Assembly (NCBI RefSeq): GCF_000016385.1
Contig: NC_009376.1
Coordinates: 1,621,076-1,653,075 of the forward strand
Length of the DNA: 32,000 nucleotides
From: Pyrobaculum arsenaticum DSM 13514
Lineage (GTDB): Archaea > Thermoproteota > Thermoprotei > Thermoproteales > Thermoproteaceae
Reading direction: 5' to 3'
In this document: positions 2,214 through 19,682 of the stretch, one piece after another
Position numbering within the stretch: position 1 is the first letter of the stretch
Layout: each line of letters begins with the position of its first letter
Program-made: the position numbers and the translations under genes
The notes under the pieces: generated by a model
The model's input: only the letters and a program-made list of their open reading frames with translations
The model's database searches: none
What the model was told of the DNA's origin: nothing

Positions 2214-2290
2214 TGGTGGGCCCGGAGGGATTTGAACCCCCGCCCTACGGGTCTGGAGCCCGCCGCTCTGCCTGGCTGAGCTACGGGCCC
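2214..2290 (-). tRNA. tRNA-Trp (anticodon CCA), intronless, 3' CCA encoded
   Basis: The reverse complement reads GGGCCCG-TA-GCTC-AGCCAGGCA-GAGC-G-GCGGG-CTCCAGA-CCCGT-AGGGC-GGGGG-TTCAAAT-CCCTC-CGGGCCC-A-CCA. All four stems pair, and the 7-nt anticodon loop is C-T-CCA-G-A. Confidence 0.92.
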
Positions 2291-2407: not shown

Positions 2408-4144
2408 CTATTTAAATTCGGCGAATTTTTGCTTGTTCCAGCCTGTTAGCGAGAGTCCTGTGACTTTAACCCAGGTTTTCGGATCTACTTTGAATGAGCT
2501 TTCTACCTTCTCGCGGTGGCCTACTACATTATATGTACAGAATGGGAATACTCTGCCGTCGGGCGTGGCGTAGTGTATGTCACAGCGCTGTACTCTCTCT
2601 ACGTCGTAGTTCATGGTATCCATGAAGTGCATTATTCCGATGCCTACAACGTTGAAGAAGAAGCGGCCTAGGGAGTCGTAGTCCTTCCTCACCAAGAAGT
2701 CGTATATCAAGTCTTTCACCTTCTTGTGCTTAACTGCTTTTAACAACTTCAGGGCTTTTACCTTGGCTGTCTGTTTGTGGATGCCGCCCTTCACTGCGGT
2801 GTAGTATATGTCCCAGGCGCCTTTTTCGAAAGCGTCTACGTCCACCAGCTTGGTGATGGGGTATATCCGCTTCTCGTCTTCGTCGTAGTAGATAAAGGTG
2901 GCGGCGCCGCACATGGGGTTCATTGAGAAGAGCGGTTTGGGCGAATCGGTCAGCGCCTCTACCATTTTGGCTAGTGCCACTGGCCAATTGGTGGGGCGCC
3001 AGTCCCACCTGCTAATGACGCCGCCTGTCTGCTTCTCTATCTCTATTATGGTGTCAGGTATTGTTATTCTGTACTTTCTAAGCTCTTCCTTGCTGTATAG
3101 CTTGGCCCTGCCTGAAAAGCTCACTGGCTGTATGTTTACCCACCTCACCACGTCTCTGTTCTGAACGGCGAAGTCGACTATTTTGCCTAGGTCTTGGTCG
3201 TTGTAGTTCTTAGCGAGGGTGACCACTAGGACGATGGAGCGGTGGCCTAGCTTCCTGGCGTTTTCGATGACCTTCTCCTTTATGATCCTGTAGGCCTTGG
3301 GGTGGTAGAGCCTGTGCCTCCAGACGCCCTCGTTCTTCTCGTCTATTGTGTCGAACTGCAGGTACAGAGTAGAGATCCCAGCGTCAAGAAGCGCCTTGTA
3401 GTACTCAATATCATTAGCAAGTCTTATGCCGTTGGTGTTTATCTCTATGTGGGTGAAGCCGAGCTTCTTGGCCATCCTCACTATTTCGGGCAGGTCGTCT
3501 CTGAGAGTGGGCTCCCCTCCCGATATCTGAATGGCGTTGGGCGGCCACGGCTTCTGCGCTCTCAGTGTCCTGAGCATATACTCGATCTGCTCTAGCGTGG
3601 GCTCGTAGACATAGCCTGCGGCACCGGCGTTTGCGAAGCAGACGGGACAGGCCATATTGCACCTATTAGTGACGTCTATGATGGCGAGTACTGTGTTGGA
3701 CTTGTGGACTGGGCAGAGGCCACAGCCCTCGGGGCATGAGCCCATGTCTTTGTAAAACTCCAGGTCCGTGTATGGGTTGGCGAGGCCCTTGGCGATGTAC
3801 TCAGGGCGGTCCCACTGGAGGAAGTAGTAGTACATCTCTGCGTCGCCCCAGTAGAGGTCTTCAAAGACGCCGTGGTGTGGACAGCTCTTCTTCAGCCATA
3901 TCGCGCCGTTTTCTTCATACACTACGGCGGGTATTCTGGCGTTGCAGACTGGGCAAAGGGAGAGAGTTGCTTTAACCACCCTGGTGTGGGCTGGCAGTCC
4001 GTACTGCCTCTTCAACGTAGACTGCCACTTCTCGTTGAGGAGAGTGGTCTTGTACCTTTCAGGTAGGTTGTACTTAGACAAATCCACAAGTCTGGCTGGC
4101 TTCTCTTCTCGGACTGTAGCCAGCTCGGCAACTTGCTTGCTCAT
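2408..4144 (-). CDS. Radical SAM enzyme with N-terminal zinc ribbon; probable tetraether lipid synthase (Tes / GDGT-MAS family)
   Basis: CNMACPVC is a CxxxCxxC radical SAM site. GSCPEGCGLCPVH is an auxiliary Cys cluster, and CPVC...CPHHG is an N-terminal ribbon. QISGGEPTLR is also present. The 578-aa architecture matches what I recall for the MJ0619/Tes family. Confidence 0.7.
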   Translation of the reverse strand: MSKQVAELATVREEKPARLVDLSKYNLPERYKTTLLNEKWQSTLKRQYGLPAHTRVVKATLSLCPVCNARIPAVVYEENGAIWLKKSCPHHGVFEDLYWGDAEMYYYFLQWDRPEYIAKGLANPYTDLEFYKDMGSCPEGCGLCPVHKSNTVLAIIDVTNRCNMACPVCFANAGAAGYVYEPTLEQIEYMLRTLRAQKPWPPNAIQISGGEPTLRDDLPEIVRMAKKLGFTHIEINTNGIRLANDIEYYKALLDAGISTLYLQFDTIDEKNEGVWRHRLYHPKAYRIIKEKVIENARKLGHRSIVLVVTLAKNYNDQDLGKIVDFAVQNRDVVRWVNIQPVSFSGRAKLYSKEELRKYRITIPDTIIEIEKQTGGVISRWDWRPTNWPVALAKMVEALTDSPKPLFSMNPMCGAATFIYYDEDEKRIYPITKLVDVDAFEKGAWDIYYTAVKGGIHKQTAKVKALKLLKAVKHKKVKDLIYDFLVRKDYDSLGRFFFNVVGIGIMHFMDTMNYDVERVQRCDIHYATPDGRVFPFCTYNVVGHREKVESSFKVDPKTWVKVTGLSLTGWNKQKFAEFK

Positions 4145-4222: not shown

Positions 4223-4942
4223 GTGGATCAGCTGGGCAAAGTGCTGGCGTCTTTTGGCATTGGGAAGAGGGAGGTGGACATATACCTAGCGCTAGTGGAG
4301 AGGGGGGAGATGACTGCTAGGGAGCTATCCGACCTGCTGGGCATACCCTACACCAAGATATATGCACATCTTGAAAGGCTGGAGAGACTTGGCTTAATCA
4401 CACCGACAGGCGGTGTGCGGCCGGCTAAATTCAGAGCTACACCCCCCGTGGAGGTATACAGAATATTAGTGAGGCAGACTTCCGAAGTTCTAAAGACTTT
4501 GAAGCCGTTTTTTGACAGCCTGCAGATAGTCTATGAGTCCAGATACGCGGCGGCAACGTCGACATTTCTCACACTAATACGCGGCGCCGAGAGGGTCTCC
4601 GACTTGATCAACGAGGTGTTGTCCGAAGCTGAGACTGAGGCATATCTAGCTCTACCTTTCGAAGAACTTATCTCCTACAAGCTGTTCGCCACGATAGTAG
4701 AGGAGTCTAAGCGTATTTCAATTAAGGTGCTCACTACAGTGCGGCTAAGGGTGAAGTTTGACCTGCCCCCCCGGGTGGAGGTAAGGGCCGTCCCCGAGAT
4801 GTTCGGCGGGGGCGCCATAGGGGGTTCGGTATTGATATTTGTCAAGCACGGCGGCGAAATCTCTGGTGTTTACTCCAACGAGCGTTTTATAGCGGAAATC
4901 GCCAAGACATACTTCTATAACGTATGGCAACGGGCAAAATAG
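4223..4942 (+). CDS. TrmB-family winged-helix transcriptional regulator
   Basis: The N-terminus FGIGKREVDIYLALVERGEMTARELSDLLGIPYTKIYAHLERLERLGLI is a typical TrmB wHTH. Confidence 0.7.
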   Translation: MDQLGKVLASFGIGKREVDIYLALVERGEMTARELSDLLGIPYTKIYAHLERLERLGLITPTGGVRPAKFRATPPVEVYRILVRQTSEVLKTLKPFFDSLQIVYESRYAAATSTFLTLIRGAERVSDLINEVLSEAETEAYLALPFEELISYKLFATIVEESKRISIKVLTTVRLRVKFDLPPRVEVRAVPEMFGGGAIGGSVLIFVKHGGEISGVYSNERFIAEIAKTYFYNVWQRAK

Positions 4943-4969
4943 CTATATAATATAGGTGTAGCCATTTCC

Positions 4970-5023
4970 GTGATGACTTTTTAGTGGGTCCTCTGAATTG
5001 GTGAAGATGGTCTGGAGCTCTGA
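4970..5023 (+). ncRNA. Box C/D sRNA guiding 2'-O-methylation of tRNA-Trp C34 (and probably C39)
   Basis: The boxes are C GTGATGA (4970-4976), D' CTGA (4993-4996), C' GTGAAGA (5001-5007) and D CTGA (5020-5023). The 12-nt D guide TGGTCTGGAGCT is complementary to tRNA-Trp nt 31-40 (GCUCCAGACC). Confidence 0.75.
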
Positions 5024-5024
5024 T

Positions 5025-7409
5025 CTAGGACTCCACTACTGCCTCGGAGCTCTCTTTTTTATCCACCTTGAAGAGGAGCGCGTTGGGAACCGCTTCTTTT
5101 ATCATCTCCGCGAATTCCCTCGACTGGGTAGCGACAACTATCTGGAAACGGCTCGCCAGCGCCTTGACCACTTCGGCAAAGGCTCTTCTTATGTTCACAT
5201 CCACGTAGGGGATCGGCTCGTCGAAGATTACAAATCCCAAGTTTATTCTTGCGATGTCCCGGAGCGCCAGCGCGAGGGCAAGGGCTATGGAGAGTCGCTG
5301 ACCGTCGCTGAGCTTAGAGATTCCATATCTATCCCCGGTGGGAGTTATGGCGTGGAAGTCGTAGAAGCCTCTGCGCTGTTCTAAGTCGGCATCAACCCTT
5401 ACGATGTCGCCATATCTGTACAGAGAGGTGAATACCTCGTTGAATCTGCTCCTAGCCACCTCAAGGAGCCGCGCCCTCGCGTTGATCTTGGCAAGCTCCA
5501 GCTTAGCCTTAACCTCCTGCAACTTGCCATAGGCGTACAGGGTGTTGTCCAGTTTCTTTTTTAACGCCTCGGCGTCTTCGCCGACTTCTCTCACAACTTC
5601 TTCTAGGAGGGCTTTCTCTCTATATGCCTCGGCGAGTTTGCGCGAGGTTTTTTCAAGCTCCTCTACGACCTCTCTCCAGTTTACATCAATGTTTATGACA
5701 TCGCTCGTGATCCCGATCTTTTTCAACGAGTCCTCGATTTCTCTTAAACGCTTACGCAACTCTCTAATCCTTACAGCCCTTCCATACTTGGCGAGGGTAT
5801 CGGATATAGTTCTTCTATCAACTCTAGCCAGCAACAAGCGTAGTCTTTCTGTCTTCTTCTCAAGCTGTTTCCAGGATTTCTCTGCTTGCAACGCCTTCTT
5901 TGCTGCCTCTTCCCTCTCGGTTTCAAGCTCCTCTAATCTAGTCTTCACGGCTAGATACTCCGCGACCTCGCCGCTTAGCGCCTCCGCCTCTTCCACGGCT
6001 TTTTCCAGCTGAGAAGCCCTCTCCTTCAGCTCCTCCACCTCCTTGATGAGAGTTCCGTGTCTAGCCTCCACCTCCTCCACACGGCGAAGGAGATCCTCTT
6101 TCCGCACAGGAGCGCCGCATATGGGGCACTTTTCTGCCCCAGTCTCCGCGGCGTAGAGCGCCACTACTCTCAACGCGGAGGAGTAAGAAACCTCTCTTTC
6201 CAACGTCTGAATCTGTCTTCTAAGCTCCGCCAGCGAGGCGCGAGCCGAATCCACTGACTGGATAGTCTTCTGTAACTCCTTGAAACGAGCGTAGTACTTC
6301 TCAAGTCTTTTTAGCCTTTCCCGTGCCTCGGCTATCTCCTCATCAATTTTCCTAACTCTTGCCGAGTATTGTTCGTAGAGTTTTTTCGCTTCTGCAATCT
6401 GCGCTTCTAGTTCGTTTTGCAACCTCGACAAGGCGTTGTACGCCTCCATCATGGCAATAGACAGCGACTCCACATCGCCGGCTTTTGAGAGCTTCTCGGC
6501 AAGCTCCTCGCCCACGACATGTTCAAATTCCTCTACGGCTTCTCTGAGCGCATCTCTCAGCCTCTCCACTGTTGACTGGTCAAAAGTCCCCCCCTCTGTA
6601 GCGCTTTCTAAAACCTCTAGTTCCGATCTTGTCTTGTAGTACTCAAGGAGCATAGACTCGTGCTCCCTCAGCTTGGCTAAGTGCTCCGCTCTTTTTCTTG
6701 CTAAGTCCTCTGCGTCTCTAGACAGCGCCGCTTCCCTCTCCTTCAGGGTTTCTACCTCTTTTGTTAAGTCTTCTAGGCGCTTCTTGACGCTGGCGAAACC
6801 GCCGTATCTTCTGATCACCTCCTTATACTTCTCATACGCCGCAAGCCTCCCCCTTAGTTCCTCGGCCTTGGCCAAAAGGGACTTCTCAACAGACGAAACA
6901 ACCCGGACAACGCTATCTATCACATCGATACCGAAGAGCCTATCTACTGTTAGCGACCTCTTCTGCGAAGTGCCGTAGATAAAGCCCTCTAGGGTCCTAT
7001 GCGATATGTAGATGAGTCTTTCGTAGATATCCTCGTCGGCGCCTAACAGCTCCTCCAGCCTCCTTTCCGCCTCTCTCCCCCGGAGCTCTTCCCCGTTGAT
7101 TCTCACCACTATCTTTTCGTCGCCGCGCCTCCCTAGGCGCCTTTCTATCTCGAGCAATCTCCCACCATCGCTTAGGACGAGGGAGACTCGCATCTCGTGA
7201 GCTTCGACGTTGATTAGGTCTAGCAACTTGGCGACTCTTTCCTTGACCTCCAATTGCCTCCCGTAGAGGGCGTACTCAACTGCGTATAGGAGAGATGTCT
7301 TACCAGCCCCTATTCTCCCCCACAGTATGTTCACATCGCCTAGGCTCACAACATGCCTCCCCTTGTAGGAGCGGAAGTTTTCCAGCTCAATCCTCTCTAT
7401 CCTCCACAT
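5025..7409 (-). CDS. Rad50/SMC-like coiled-coil ABC ATPase; arcadin-4 of the crenactin cluster
   Basis: Walker A is GRIGAGKTS, the signature motif is LSDGQR, and the Walker B/D-loop is FVIFDEPIPYVD. About 550 aa of heptad-rich E/K/L/R sequence carry CPICG at residues 428-431. It is the last gene of the crenactin operon. Confidence 0.85.
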   Translation of the reverse strand: MWRIERIELENFRSYKGRHVVSLGDVNILWGRIGAGKTSLLYAVEYALYGRQLEVKERVAKLLDLINVEAHEMRVSLVLSDGGRLLEIERRLGRRGDEKIVVRINGEELRGREAERRLEELLGADEDIYERLIYISHRTLEGFIYGTSQKRSLTVDRLFGIDVIDSVVRVVSSVEKSLLAKAEELRGRLAAYEKYKEVIRRYGGFASVKKRLEDLTKEVETLKEREAALSRDAEDLARKRAEHLAKLREHESMLLEYYKTRSELEVLESATEGGTFDQSTVERLRDALREAVEEFEHVVGEELAEKLSKAGDVESLSIAMMEAYNALSRLQNELEAQIAEAKKLYEQYSARVRKIDEEIAEARERLKRLEKYYARFKELQKTIQSVDSARASLAELRRQIQTLEREVSYSSALRVVALYAAETGAEKCPICGAPVRKEDLLRRVEEVEARHGTLIKEVEELKERASQLEKAVEEAEALSGEVAEYLAVKTRLEELETEREEAAKKALQAEKSWKQLEKKTERLRLLLARVDRRTISDTLAKYGRAVRIRELRKRLREIEDSLKKIGITSDVINIDVNWREVVEELEKTSRKLAEAYREKALLEEVVREVGEDAEALKKKLDNTLYAYGKLQEVKAKLELAKINARARLLEVARSRFNEVFTSLYRYGDIVRVDADLEQRRGFYDFHAITPTGDRYGISKLSDGQRLSIALALALALRDIARINLGFVIFDEPIPYVDVNIRRAFAEVVKALASRFQIVVATQSREFAEMIKEAVPNALLFKVDKKESSEAVVES

Positions 7410-8166: not shown

Positions 8167-9480
<1,314 letters not shown>

Positions 9481-9860: not shown

Positions 9861-10577
9861 TTACGTAAATCCCGTCTTCCTCAAGAGCTCCACTAGGACT
9901 TGCCCTCTCTCGTTGAAATAGCCTTCAGCACCCGCGTAGCGCTCTAGTAGCCTTAGCCAGTCTCCCGACCTGGTAATCTTCCCCATTATTTGATATGCTT
10001 GGCCCAGCTGAATGTCGGAATATGGCCTATACTCCTCTTTGTGGAAAAGCATATCTAGAGGTAGTCTAGGCCGCTGTGGGGGATCCTCGTCGGGTATCCC
10101 TATGACAAGCCCAAAAAGTGGATAAGTCAGAGGAGGCAGTTTTAACATATCGATAAGCTCTGCTACGGCGTTCTGGACGGCGCCTATAAAACAACTGCCG
10201 TAGCCCAAGGCAGTTGCGGCCAAGGCCATATTCTCGGCCGCCAACGCGGCGTCGACCGCCGCGAATAACAACAGCGACATTTTGTTCCTAGCCATCTCGC
10301 GGTTTCTGAATTTGAGCAATTCTCTTAGGCGGTATAGATCTGCGACAAATACAAAGAAGTCAGACCCCTCATCTACATGCGGCTGATTTATGAGCCTCGC
10401 GATCTCAGCCTTCTTCACATCGTCTCTTATCCAAACCGCACTCCATAGGTGGAGCGTGGCATCTGTCGGCGCCGCCCTACCCGCCTCCATAATCTTCGTA
10501 ATGTCCTCCTCTGGGATTTTCGCCCGCTTAAACTTCCTCACAGAGCGCCTCCTATGTACCGCTTCGAAGAAATCCAC
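9861..10577 (-). CDS. Nitroreductase-family FMN oxidoreductase
   Basis: FFEAVHRRRSVRKF...EDITKIMEAGRAAPT is the canonical nitroreductase N-terminus. Confidence 0.8.
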   Translation of the reverse strand: MDFFEAVHRRRSVRKFKRAKIPEEDITKIMEAGRAAPTDATLHLWSAVWIRDDVKKAEIARLINQPHVDEGSDFFVFVADLYRLRELLKFRNREMARNKMSLLLFAAVDAALAAENMALAATALGYGSCFIGAVQNAVAELIDMLKLPPLTYPLFGLVIGIPDEDPPQRPRLPLDMLFHKEEYRPYSDIQLGQAYQIMGKITRSGDWLRLLERYAGAEGYFNERGQVLVELLRKTGFT

Positions 10578-14902: not shown

Positions 14903-15701
14903 AGCAATCTGCCGCGAAAGCGACGTAAAGCTAATCGGGGCACCAATGGAGGACACAGTGAGCTTCAGGCCAGGGACGCGCTTTGCTCCCCAGAGGATAA
15001 GGCAGATTTTGCCGTATCTGGAATATACCACGCTGTTTGGCAACGTGGCGAAGCCCTTGTGCGACTTAGGCGACGTCGAGTTGCTACAAGGCAGGCCGGA
15101 GGAAAACGTGGAGATGATAAAAAAGGCGTTGCAGAAGGCAGAGCCGCCCTTTCTCATGCTCGGCGGGGAGCACACGGTGACATACGCCGCGTTGAAAGTC
15201 GTCAAGCCGGATACCTACGTGCATATAGACGCCCACTTCGACCTCCGCAACGAGTGGCCTCCCGGGCAGAGGCTCTCGCACGCCACCTTCGCCCGGAGAG
15301 CCCACGAGGAGCTCGGATTCTACGCCATATACATAGGCGTGAGGGCCTACGATGACGAGGAGCGGAAATATGCAGAGGAAGCAGGCTTCTTCGTAGTTAG
15401 GGGTAGCGACTTCACTAGAGAAGTGGTTTCCGATGCCGTGTCGACCGCCTCCGGGAGGGTATACCTAAGCCTAGACATAGACGTCCTTGACCCTTCCGAG
15501 GCGCCGGGCGTCGGCACCCCGGAAGCAGGGGGGCTCACTTTCAAAAAACTGGAATACCTATTAACGGACCTCATGCTGGCTCTTAAGCCCGTGGCCGTGG
15601 ACATCGTTGAATACTCCCCGCCTAACGACGTGTCGGACATAACAGCCACAAAGGTAGCTAGACTTCTCATGCACATGGCGTCGCTCCTACAAAAACAGTG
15701 A
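14895..15701 (+). CDS. speB: Agmatinase (arginase/ureohydrolase family)
   Basis: GGEHTVTY, HIDAHFDLR and SLDIDVLDPSEAPGVGTPEAGG are Mn-binding motifs. Confidence 0.85.
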   Translation: MLKAICRESDVKLIGAPMEDTVSFRPGTRFAPQRIRQILPYLEYTTLFGNVAKPLCDLGDVELLQGRPEENVEMIKKALQKAEPPFLMLGGEHTVTYAALKVVKPDTYVHIDAHFDLRNEWPPGQRLSHATFARRAHEELGFYAIYIGVRAYDDEERKYAEEAGFFVVRGSDFTREVVSDAVSTASGRVYLSLDIDVLDPSEAPGVGTPEAGGLTFKKLEYLLTDLMLALKPVAVDIVEYSPPNDVSDITATKVARLLMHMASLLQKQ

Positions 15702-15714
15702 CCCACCCAGTAAA

Positions 15715-15765
15715 TCAGCCAGTATGCCTCTCTTCATACTCAGCCGCGAGCTACCTCTTCATCAC
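15715..15765 (-). ncRNA. Box C/D sRNA candidate (target unknown)
   Basis: The minus strand reads GTGATGA-15 nt-CTGA-GT-ATGAAGA-12 nt-CTGA. It lies in the intergenic spacer between speB and the NMNAT gene. Confidence 0.55.
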
Positions 15766-16830: not shown

Positions 16831-18400
<1,570 letters not shown>

Positions 18401-18423
18401 GCCACGTCTCAACAAGAGGATAT

Positions 18424-19020
18424 TTAAGACTTCTGCTGCCTAGCCTTTAAGAAAAGGCTGACTATGTACTCCGCGGCTATCTCCGCATGTTCATACGGCC
18501 TGCTCTGCGGCTTCCCCCTAAAACTTAGTACATGCACTGTGCTCTCGCTTGCATTTGCAGCCGCGAAGGCGTAGTATCTGTTGGCTTGTTGGTGCATCTC
18601 AATGTCTTCTGGGGATTCCTCATCTCTAAACCTATCTGGGTCTTTCTTGCGTCTTTCGAGAATATCTTTGGGATCGTACTCGACTAGCAATATCACGTCG
18701 GGCTTTAGCTTAGAAACAACTCTGTCGGGGAGGCCTGGGTAGTAGCCGCCACCTATCTTAATGGAGGCGTGAGTGTCTATCAAGACATCGCCGGGCAGGG
18801 AGGCGATGTACTCTGCGGCTTCTTCTTGGATTTTCCTATACTCCTCTATTGGTATTTTCTTTCTCATCTCATCTCTGTGCTGTATCCCAAATTTCTTTTT
18901 GGAAATTTCTAACATTACATCTCCGTAGTTTACTATCTTGACATCTGGAAGTTTCTGCCTGACATAGTTCATTATAGTTGTCTTTCCGCTCCCAGGCACA
19001 GCTACTAGAACTACCTTCAT
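18424..19020 (-). CDS. adkA: Adenylate kinase, archaeal type
   Basis: The P-loop is VAVPGSGKTT. HRDEMRK and IDTHASIK are also present. Confidence 0.85.
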   Translation of the reverse strand: MKVVLVAVPGSGKTTIMNYVRQKLPDVKIVNYGDVMLEISKKKFGIQHRDEMRKKIPIEEYRKIQEEAAEYIASLPGDVLIDTHASIKIGGGYYPGLPDRVVSKLKPDVILLVEYDPKDILERRKKDPDRFRDEESPEDIEMHQQANRYYAFAAANASESTVHVLSFRGKPQSRPYEHAEIAAEYIVSLFLKARQQKS

Positions 19021-19682
19021 AAACTTCTGTGAATTCCTTCTTTTAAAGCTTTACTCAAATTTACATATCTCAGCTGAGGAGAAGCGTCGTTGACAATAGC
19101 CCTTCCGACTATAACCACATCTACATTGACCCCCCTTTTTAGTATGAGCTCGATCTCGCGCTCTGAGATACCCCCCGCTACCCCTACGCCGACTCCCAAG
19201 CCTTTAATTATAGTGGCAATATCCAGAAGATTTTCAAACGTAAGACCTGTTCTTTTCTGTACGTCTATCCCGAGGTGAACTACAAACATGTCAGGCCGTA
19301 CCACCTCTAGTATTTCTCTTGCCCTAGCTTCGGGGTTTTGGACACCTATGAGATCCACTATGCTTTTCAAACCAAGCCCTCTTCCCTCTTTTACGAATTC
19401 CTCTATTGTCTCGATATTCGTGGCGCCCATAACCGTAGCCCAGTCTGCGCCGAATTCCCAGGCAAGCCGCGCCTCAAGTGCGCCTACATCTGCAGTTTTT
19501 AAGTCGGCGACCACCTCGGCTTTGGGGCACGCTACTTTCACCGCGCTCACAGACGGTAATCCGTACGTCTTGATCAACGGGGTGCCTACCTCCACCACTT
19601 CAAGGCCAACTTTGCAGAGATCTTTTGTTAACTGTATCGCCTTTCTAATATCGGTTATGTCTAGCGCGACTTGTAGCCTCAC
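19017..19682 (-). CDS. 3-Hexulose-6-phosphate synthase (OMP-decarboxylase fold)
   Basis: LQVALDITD, VEVGTPLIKTYG, VVADLKTADVG, VAGGI and VIVGRAI align along the whole length with the recalled B. subtilis HxlA. Confidence 0.7.
   Translation of the reverse strand: MRLQVALDITDIRKAIQLTKDLCKVGLEVVEVGTPLIKTYGLPSVSAVKVACPKAEVVADLKTADVGALEARLAWEFGADWATVMGATNIETIEEFVKEGRGLGLKSIVDLIGVQNPEARAREILEVVRPDMFVVHLGIDVQKRTGLTFENLLDIATIIKGLGVGVGVAGGISEREIELILKRGVNVDVVIVGRAIVNDASPQLRYVNLSKALKEGIHRSL

Follow-up and report, generated by a model that had tools for sequence, protein, structure and literature searches.

The window analyzed here is a 32,000-nt stretch of the Pyrobaculum arsenaticum DSM 13514 genome (contig NC_009376.1, positions 1,621,076 to 1,653,075, forward strand), and all coordinates count from its first letter. 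Direct reading of the plus strand at 4970-5023 gives a complete C/D'/C'/D array, lying between a gene for a TrmB-family regulator and a convergent gene for an SMC/Rad50-like ATPase. A single tRNA, tRNA-Trp, was detected in the window by ARAGORN and Rfam. The features concerned are the following.

2214-2290, minus strand: tRNA-Trp(CCA), intronless, with CCA encoded (ARAGORN; 68.4 bits with the Rfam tRNA model).
4223-4942, plus strand: TrmB-family regulator gene (Pfam TrmB; exact match to P. arsenaticum DSM 13514 ABP51361.1), the upstream neighbor, ending 27 nt before the C box.
4943-4954, plus strand: A/T-rich, TATA-like element CTATATAATATA, 16-27 nt upstream of the C box and directly after the trmB-like stop, recognized from sequence only.
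4970-4976, plus strand: C box GTGATGA, read directly; the same or a near variant in 15/15 aligned orthologues.
4977-4992, plus strand: D' spacer and guide CTTTTTAGTGGGTCCT, 16 nt, the conserved part being the 9-10 nt that adjoin the D' box.
4993-4996, plus strand: D' box CTGA, read directly; terminal GA invariant among orthologues.
4997-5000, plus strand: ATTG, the short D'-C' loop, read directly.
5001-5007, plus strand: C' box GTGAAGA, read directly; UGA core kept and remainder degenerate in orthologues.
5008-5019, plus strand: D guide TGGTCTGGAGCT, 12 nt, antisense to tRNA-Trp nt 30-40, with G5015 (fifth nucleotide upstream of box D) pairing with C34.
5020-5023, plus strand: D box CTGA, read directly; invariant in orthologues.
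5025-7409, minus strand: SMC/Rad50-like ATPase gene (arcadin-4), 794 aa (Pfam SMC_N; exact match to P. arsenaticum DSM 13514 ABP51362.1), the convergent neighbor.

With a C box near its 5' end, a D box near its 3' end and D' and C' boxes between them, the element has the layout by which archaeal box C/D sRNAs are recognized. Judged by these motifs, it is a canonical free-standing, trans-acting box C/D sRNA whose D guide has the predicted role of directing Cm34 formation in tRNA-Trp. A preliminary description of this stretch had placed the four boxes at these same positions and had pointed to a long C-to-D' spacer; both observations hold. Against a usual length of ~12 nt, the D spacer measures 12 nt and the D' spacer 16 nt, with 14-18 nt in orthologues. 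A strict four-box pattern matched at two places in the window and nowhere in 500 random windows that had the same first-order composition.

Two further candidates were noted in the window. A second complete box C/D sRNA may be encoded on the minus strand at 15715-15765 (GTGATGA, AGAGGTAGCTCGCGG, CTGA, GT, ATGAAGA, GAGGCATACTGG, CTGA); it has a TTTTTTAAAC element ~25 nt upstream and is convergent with an ORF ending at 15701. The third is a C/D-like sequence with degenerate internal boxes on the plus strand at 2113-2164 (GTGATGA ... GTGACTT, GGCGGTTATCACG, CTGA), which converges on tRNA-Trp, with 50 nt between its end and that gene. This candidate is conserved in P. oguniense and in loci L162/L163, and its C'/D-guide/D part is kept in a P. 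aerophilum-like genome (L148) and in Pyrobaculum sp. 3827-6 (L154).

The anticodon arm of tRNA-Trp reads GCGGG CUCCAGA CCCGU. In an exhaustive register scan, the best duplex of the D guide on this tRNA comprised 10 Watson-Crick (WC) pairs and one G:U pair over nt 30-40, with the N+5 position on C34. Both this duplex and the intronless tRNA-Trp gene had been put forward in the preliminary description, and the scan, ARAGORN and Rfam agree with it. At least 10 WC pairs to tRNA-Trp were reached by ~0.1% of shuffled D guides; the random-window and shuffled-guide controls rule out a chance origin of the four-box motif. Predicted energies of the P. arsenaticum D guide duplex were -22.0 kcal/mol at 37 C and -5.9 kcal/mol at 90 C. 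Lui et al. 2018 accept a target on the basis of at least nine contiguous WC pairs to a stable RNA and a WC pair at N+5; the D guide forms at least nine, and its N+5 pair is G:C34.

The sRNA would be ~55-60 nt long and transcribed from the gap between the trmB-like gene and arcadin-4, with the TATA-like element at 4943-4954 as a possible promoter of its own. L7Ae would be recruited to both the C/D and the C'/D' motif, followed by Nop5 and fibrillarin, and the 12-nt D guide would pair with tRNA-Trp nt 30/31-40, spanning the anticodon loop and the stem strand 3' of it. The wobble C34, which lies opposite the fifth guide base, would be 2'-O-methylated by fibrillarin to Cm34, a modification that limits decoding to UGG. 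We infer RNP assembly, expression and C34 methylation from established knowledge of archaeal C/D RNPs and from the published prediction for sR26, described below. A counterpoint to the guide pairing is that the anticodon stem has to melt first. Chemical analyses have detected Cm34 in the tRNA-Trp of S. acidocaldarius, H. volcanii and T. kodakarensis.

For Pyrobaculum, a C/D sRNA that acts in trans to direct Cm34 of tRNA-Trp is already in the literature and is not new. Lui et al. 2018 (NAR 46:5678; PMC6009581) curated 110 C/D sRNA families from six Pyrobaculum species, P. arsenaticum included. The paper gives 'sR26:C34Trp' as a single target, names the 'sR26 family D guide' in its Table 1, and does not include sR26 in its list of the rare sRNAs with two guides on one tRNA. 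Because sR26 was published with its D guide on C34 of tRNA-Trp, our main finding was known beforehand, and the trans-acting C34 guide claimed in the preliminary description coincides with this assignment. We infer that the locus is P. arsenaticum sR26 from species, target and guide position, not from a sequence match. The element is thus very probably the P. arsenaticum member of sR26, a predicted Cm34 guide for tRNA-Trp with a D' guide that is not a conserved guide for C39.

Using the TrmB-like protein as a handle, we collected 58 genome loci; the sRNA was present in 15 of them, and these were aligned. In all, more than 18 genomes of Pyrobaculum and Thermoproteus were found to have an orthologue at this position, between the trmB-like gene and arcadin-4 in the 15 loci, and further copies came from metagenome contigs. 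Pyrobaculum keeps the gene order radical-SAM gene, trmB, sRNA, arcadin-4. Thermoproteus has the same order, but its sRNA lies ~700 nt from arcadin-4. Arcadin-4 has been described as SMC/Rad50-like (PMC5173319). In the window, its ORF adjoins a 56-aa ORF, a 193-aa ORF and an actin-family ORF at 8167-9465, a neighborhood that matches the crenactin 'arcade' cluster; the syntenic locus L163 carries annotations for Arcadin_1 and Actin.

The stop codon of arcadin-4 occupies 5025-5027, 1 nt past the end of the D box, a proximity remarked on in the preliminary description and upheld here for what is an SMC-like gene. The transcript might accordingly be mainly an antisense or termination element for convergent arcadin-4, with an incidental complementarity to tRNA. 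Beyond the 1-nt distance, this reading draws on the convergent layout retained in Pyrobaculum and on the statement of Lui et al. 2018 (PMC6009581) that 3'-antisense placement of sRNAs is common in Pyrobaculum. However, the sRNA and the ORF do not overlap, the Thermoproteus sRNA has the same D guide ~700 nt away from arcadin-4, and conservation falls on the tRNA-complementary guide rather than on the flank. We consider such a role very improbable and rejected it as the main function, since adjacency is lost in Thermoproteus while the guide is retained.

Guidance of C34 methylation fits the pattern of conservation. The alignment of 15 orthologues shows no variation in GTCTGGAGC-N-CTGA, in the UGA of C' or in the GA of D', and next to none in the C box. 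The first two bases of the D' box vary (CU, GU, UU, CC, GC, AC), and sequence divergence is seen in the flanks and in the 5' portion of the D' spacer. A P. aerophilum-like copy found after the alignment (L150, ~3735-3795) reads GTTTGGAGC, with a single C-to-T change that gives a G:U pair with G37. With this D guide, GGGUUUGGAGCG, nt 31-41 stay paired (10 WC + 1 G:U), and other lineages have C:G at G37. The guide is thereby kept in Pyrobaculum and Thermoproteus with at most one change, which preserves pairing as G:U, and GCUCCAGACC is kept in every tRNA-Trp recovered from these lineages. The preliminary description had proposed that orthologous loci be compared for retention of the boxes and for covariation of the guide with the anticodon arm. 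Boxes and D guide are indeed kept, but the D' guide varies while the anticodon arm of tRNA-Trp (nt 27-43) is identical everywhere.

A pattern scan of metagenomes returned many further identical or near-identical copies of the sRNA. Apparent chance matches were ignored, among them one identical sequence that recurs in soil metagenomes and has no D' box. Unrelated free-standing C/D sRNAs with the same C34-Trp D guide (e.g. ACGUCUGGAGC-N-CUGA) were also seen in marine-sediment, hydrothermal and other metagenomes (contigs L063, L119, L133, L069, L085, L102, L135, L127, L080, L093 and L122). Unrelated D' guides accompany it; GGTTCC/GGAACC terminal stems are present in several of these sRNAs, and one is located directly downstream of a tRNA gene. 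From these sequences, trans-acting guides for C34-Trp seem to be widespread beyond the Thermoproteaceae.

The D' guide was compared with tRNA-Trp of the same genomes. By ARAGORN and BLAST, the P. arsenaticum/oguniense clade and Thermoproteus are the only groups in which tRNA-Trp was found near the sRNA. For P. islandicum and the P. aerophilum-like, DRTY-8 and 21I_056 metagenome-assembled genomes (MAGs), tRNA-Trp was obtained through neighbors of the GNAT gene; that of Pyrobaculum sp. 3827-6 was not recovered by this route and stands outside the matched set. In P. islandicum (L149, 3700-3900), neither the sRNA nor arcadin-4 was found downstream of trmB. Its sR26 must lie at another locus and, as the locus is rearranged, P. 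islandicum yields no matched pair. The set of same-genome sRNA/tRNA pairs therefore numbers five: P. arsenaticum, P. aerophilum-like, 21I_056, DRTY-8 and Thermoproteus. The recovered tRNA-Trp sequences are identical throughout nt 27-43; their differences fall in the acceptor and T stems. In the P. aerophilum-like MAG (L148), tRNA-Trp (16945-17021) lies 356 nt from the divergent nop5-fibrillarin genes (17377-19577), which puts a substrate gene beside genes of the methylation machinery.

The conserved 3' part of the D' guide takes these forms, and in the alignment the Pyrobaculum guides read (G/A)UGGG(G/U)CC.

P. arsenaticum/oguniense: GUGGGUCCU
Most Pyrobaculum: (G/A)UGGGGCC(U/A/G)
DRTY-8 and KC_015: CGUAGGGGU
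Thermoproteus: GGUGAGCCC

According to the preliminary description, the D' guide targets C39, so that D and D' together would reproduce in trans both sites of the euryarchaeal intron guide. The register scan does find a duplex on nt 37-43 (5 WC + 2 G:U) with N+5 on C39. Matches exactly at position 39 occurred in just 0.2% of shuffled D' guides, and duplexes of at least 7 bp anywhere on the tRNA in ~20%. Furthermore, the consensus D' guide of the sR3 family, discussed below, is fully complementary to nt 35-43 and aligns with that of the window, and by the relaxed rule that Lui et al. 2018 apply to second guides, the D and D' duplexes together score 33, above the cut-off of 32. Several observations speak against a role at C39, however. 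The site is the third best for the D' guide on tRNA-Trp, after nt 67-74 (7 WC + 1 G:U, N+5 = C70) and nt 1-8, and its predicted energy in P. arsenaticum is -9.6 kcal/mol at 37 C and -1.5 at 90 C, versus -16.5 and -3.9 kcal/mol for the duplex with the acceptor strand. The C39 duplex has 7 bp in the P. arsenaticum/oguniense clade, the only lineage with the N4 U:A38 pair that completes it, and 5 bp in the P. aerophilum-like and 21I_056 sRNAs; in DRTY-8 and Thermoproteus, no contiguous C39 duplex is among the three best D' sites. These losses occur although nt 35-44 are identical everywhere: 71% of cells in the C39 helix are paired, and the target side never varies. Absence of sR26 from the dual-guide tRNA sRNAs of Lui et al. 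2018 (PMC6009581) points the same way. A dual guide for C34 and C39 is therefore unlikely. The duplex at 37-43 is real in P. arsenaticum, but comparison of sequences across relatives does not support C39 as a second target, and the symmetry of '34 and 39 in trans' is not conserved.

A different site emerged from the best contiguous D' duplex in each matched pair.

P. arsenaticum: nt 67-74, 7 WC + 1 G:U, N+5 = C70
P. aerophilum-like: nt 67-74, 8 WC, N+5 = C70
21I_056: nt 67-73, 7 WC (8 with the first trailer base, U), N+5 = C70
DRTY-8: nt 61-68, 8 WC, N+5 = C64
Thermoproteus: nt 29-34, 6 bp, N+5 = C32

The D' guide may thus be a second element antisense to the 3' strand of tRNA-Trp or its precursor, serving as an anchor, as an unfolding aid or as a guide for methylation of C70/C64. 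In one lineage its site would be the T-stem/acceptor junction, and otherwise the acceptor strand with the discriminator and C74. In four pairs, the best duplex lies at 67-74, 67-73 or 61-68, and with one A:C mismatch allowed the Thermoproteus guide also maps to nt 67-75 with N+5 on C70. Each guide fits its own tRNA type best, with 7-8 WC pairs on the diagonal and 5-6 off it. When four pairs are aligned, pairing extends to 96.9% of the cells of the 67-74 helix, and two of its pairs change on both sides (N4:69 from G:C to C:G or U:G; N9:74 from G:C to A:U). This combination of pairing and covariation was reached in 13 of 500 shuffles, and slid registers showed no covariation. A third member of the P. 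arsenaticum clade retains G69 in the tRNA together with U in the guide. By the relaxed second-guide rule, the P. arsenaticum acceptor duplex scores 36 and the C39 duplex 33, so that both pass; in the P. aerophilum-like genome, only the acceptor duplex does.

Set against this are the small number of lineages, five matched with about three independent events, and duplexes that at 7-8 bp are short for ~90 C. The N+5 site shifts between lineages (C70 versus C64), and in Thermoproteus the A:C mismatch sits beside it. Acceptor stems with GGGCCC or GGGGCC also occur in other tRNAs, so that the pairing may not be specific to tRNA-Trp, and G+C-rich sequences inflate chance pairing. On balance, we regard pairing of the D' guide with the 3' strand as a tentative reading, somewhat less likely than not.

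Alternatively, the D' guide could be an orphan, its C'/D' k-turn being needed only for symmetric RNP assembly and its complementarity to tRNA-Trp arising by chance. Lui et al. 2018 (PMC6009581) state that ~80% of tRNA-targeting Pyrobaculum sRNAs have one targetless guide; orthologues have degenerate D' and C' boxes and a D' spacer of 14-18 nt, and the ~20% of shuffled guides that attain at least 7 bp on the tRNA bear on this reading too. Conservation within Pyrobaculum of the 9 nt adjoining the D' box, but not of the 5' part of the spacer, is harder to reconcile with an orphan, as is the covariation with the 3' strand of tRNA-Trp. We hold an orphan D' guide to be possible, while leaning away from it. 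From the sequences compared, the conserved 3' part of the D' guide most likely pairs with the 3' acceptor strand of tRNA-Trp or else has no target.

Pairing with the 3' strand can be extended, again tentatively and short of an even chance, to a single-tRNA guide that acts at two sites: D would make Cm34, and D' would pair and co-evolve with the 3' acceptor strand, discriminator and C74. The first trailer base would take the place of C74 where CCA is not encoded, and the single-stranded 3' end would act as a toehold. Instead of modifying C39, the second pairing would help to capture or unfold the tRNA, or direct an acceptor-stem methylation not yet described. Separately, we observed that in tRNA-Trp genes without encoded CCA (21I_056, L160; JAWBBP, L159) the trailer begins with U, and that the matched 21I_056 D' guide (L015) has A instead of G at N9, which would pair with this trailer U. 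The combination of N9 A and trailer U hints that the sRNA meets the precursor tRNA. If the two-site reading is true, the sRNA would act on precursor tRNA in lineages lacking an encoded CCA.

Co-evolution of the D' guide with the tRNA-Trp 3' strand is, by this comparative reading, a possibly new and modestly supported lead: a guide supposed to be targetless tracks lineage-specific changes in the 3' strand of its tRNA. If real, such pairing would be relevant to the way in which C/D RNPs reach tightly folded tRNAs at ~90 C, and would mean that some 'orphan' guides of tRNA-targeting sRNAs are not orphans. We also note that the order of the two guides in 4984-5019 is that of the antisense strand of tRNA-Trp, with the complement of nt 67-74 preceding that of nt 31-40. 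An origin of the sRNA from an antisense copy of tRNA-Trp is compatible with this order, but the spacing differs (25 nt versus 34 nt), and the idea is pure speculation.

Among known systems, the guide in the euryarchaeal pre-tRNA-Trp intron invites the closest comparison. Archaeoglobus fulgidus sR3 resides in the pre-tRNA-Trp intron and methylates tRNA-Trp. The intron system produces Cm34 and Um39/Cm39 and was later described as intron-encoded yet trans-acting. At permissive thresholds, RF01133 (sR3) was the sole non-tRNA Rfam match in the window, with 30.4 bits (E = 4e-4 for the whole window), a score below the gathering threshold of 41 bits. The alignment takes in both guides, and the sR3 consensus guides (D' AaCGGGUCUg, D CCGUUGGAGCa) both fit the tRNA-Trp anticodon arm. 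By its name and consensus guides, RF01133 is probably the tRNA-Trp intron guide family.

In relatives, tRNA-Trp carries short introns at non-canonical places (L013, 3387-3496; L060, 3741-3850; L012, 1-65; L158, ~10255-10348; L160, 12583-12676; L159). In Thermoproteus these lie near 30/31 and in the T-loop; a 20-nt intron interrupts the D arm in the DRTY-8 type and JAWBBP, and 21I_056 has an intron in the variable region. ARAGORN missed or mis-called several of these intron-bearing genes, for example as 'tRNA-Arg with a 74-nt intron'. A search of these relatives' tRNA-Trp introns for box C/D motifs found none.

The intron guides of Archaeoglobus (sR3), Pyrococcus (sR50) and Haloferax share with the P. 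arsenaticum sRNA the target tRNA, the wobble Cm34 and the L7Ae/Nop5/fibrillarin machinery, and the guides can be aligned (30.4 bits). They differ in residing inside the tRNA intron and in having a perfect D' guide for Um39/Cm39, whereas the P. arsenaticum sRNA is free-standing and intergenic, 2.7 kb from tRNA-Trp, and its pairing with C39 is not conserved. Euryarchaeota thus appear to obtain this wobble methylation from a guide within an intron, and Thermoproteaceae from a free-standing gene. The preliminary description took this as a rewiring from cis to trans. With sR3 as the closest Rfam model, that is a reasonable reading, but it is not new and the direction of change is not readable: as both RNAs are complementary to the same tRNA, their similarity cannot separate common descent from convergence.

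Other trans-acting guides for position 34 (those for Pyrococcus tRNA-Leu and tRNA-Met, and Pyrobaculum sR27, sR45 and sR46) are likewise free-standing and aimed at the wobble base of a single tRNA species; the tRNAs they target differ from tRNA-Trp. The same chemical outcome is reached by a different enzyme in bacteria, where TrmL is a reported protein-only route to Cm34. It is reached with different guides at human elongator tRNA-Met C34, on which a nucleolar and a Cajal-body-specific box C/D RNP reportedly act together. Nearest of all is sR26 of Lui et al. 2018, with the same species set, RNA class, D guide on C34 of tRNA-Trp and single tRNA target. As published, sR26 is not given as a dual guide, whereas the element described here has a second complementarity, to the 3' strand of tRNA-Trp.
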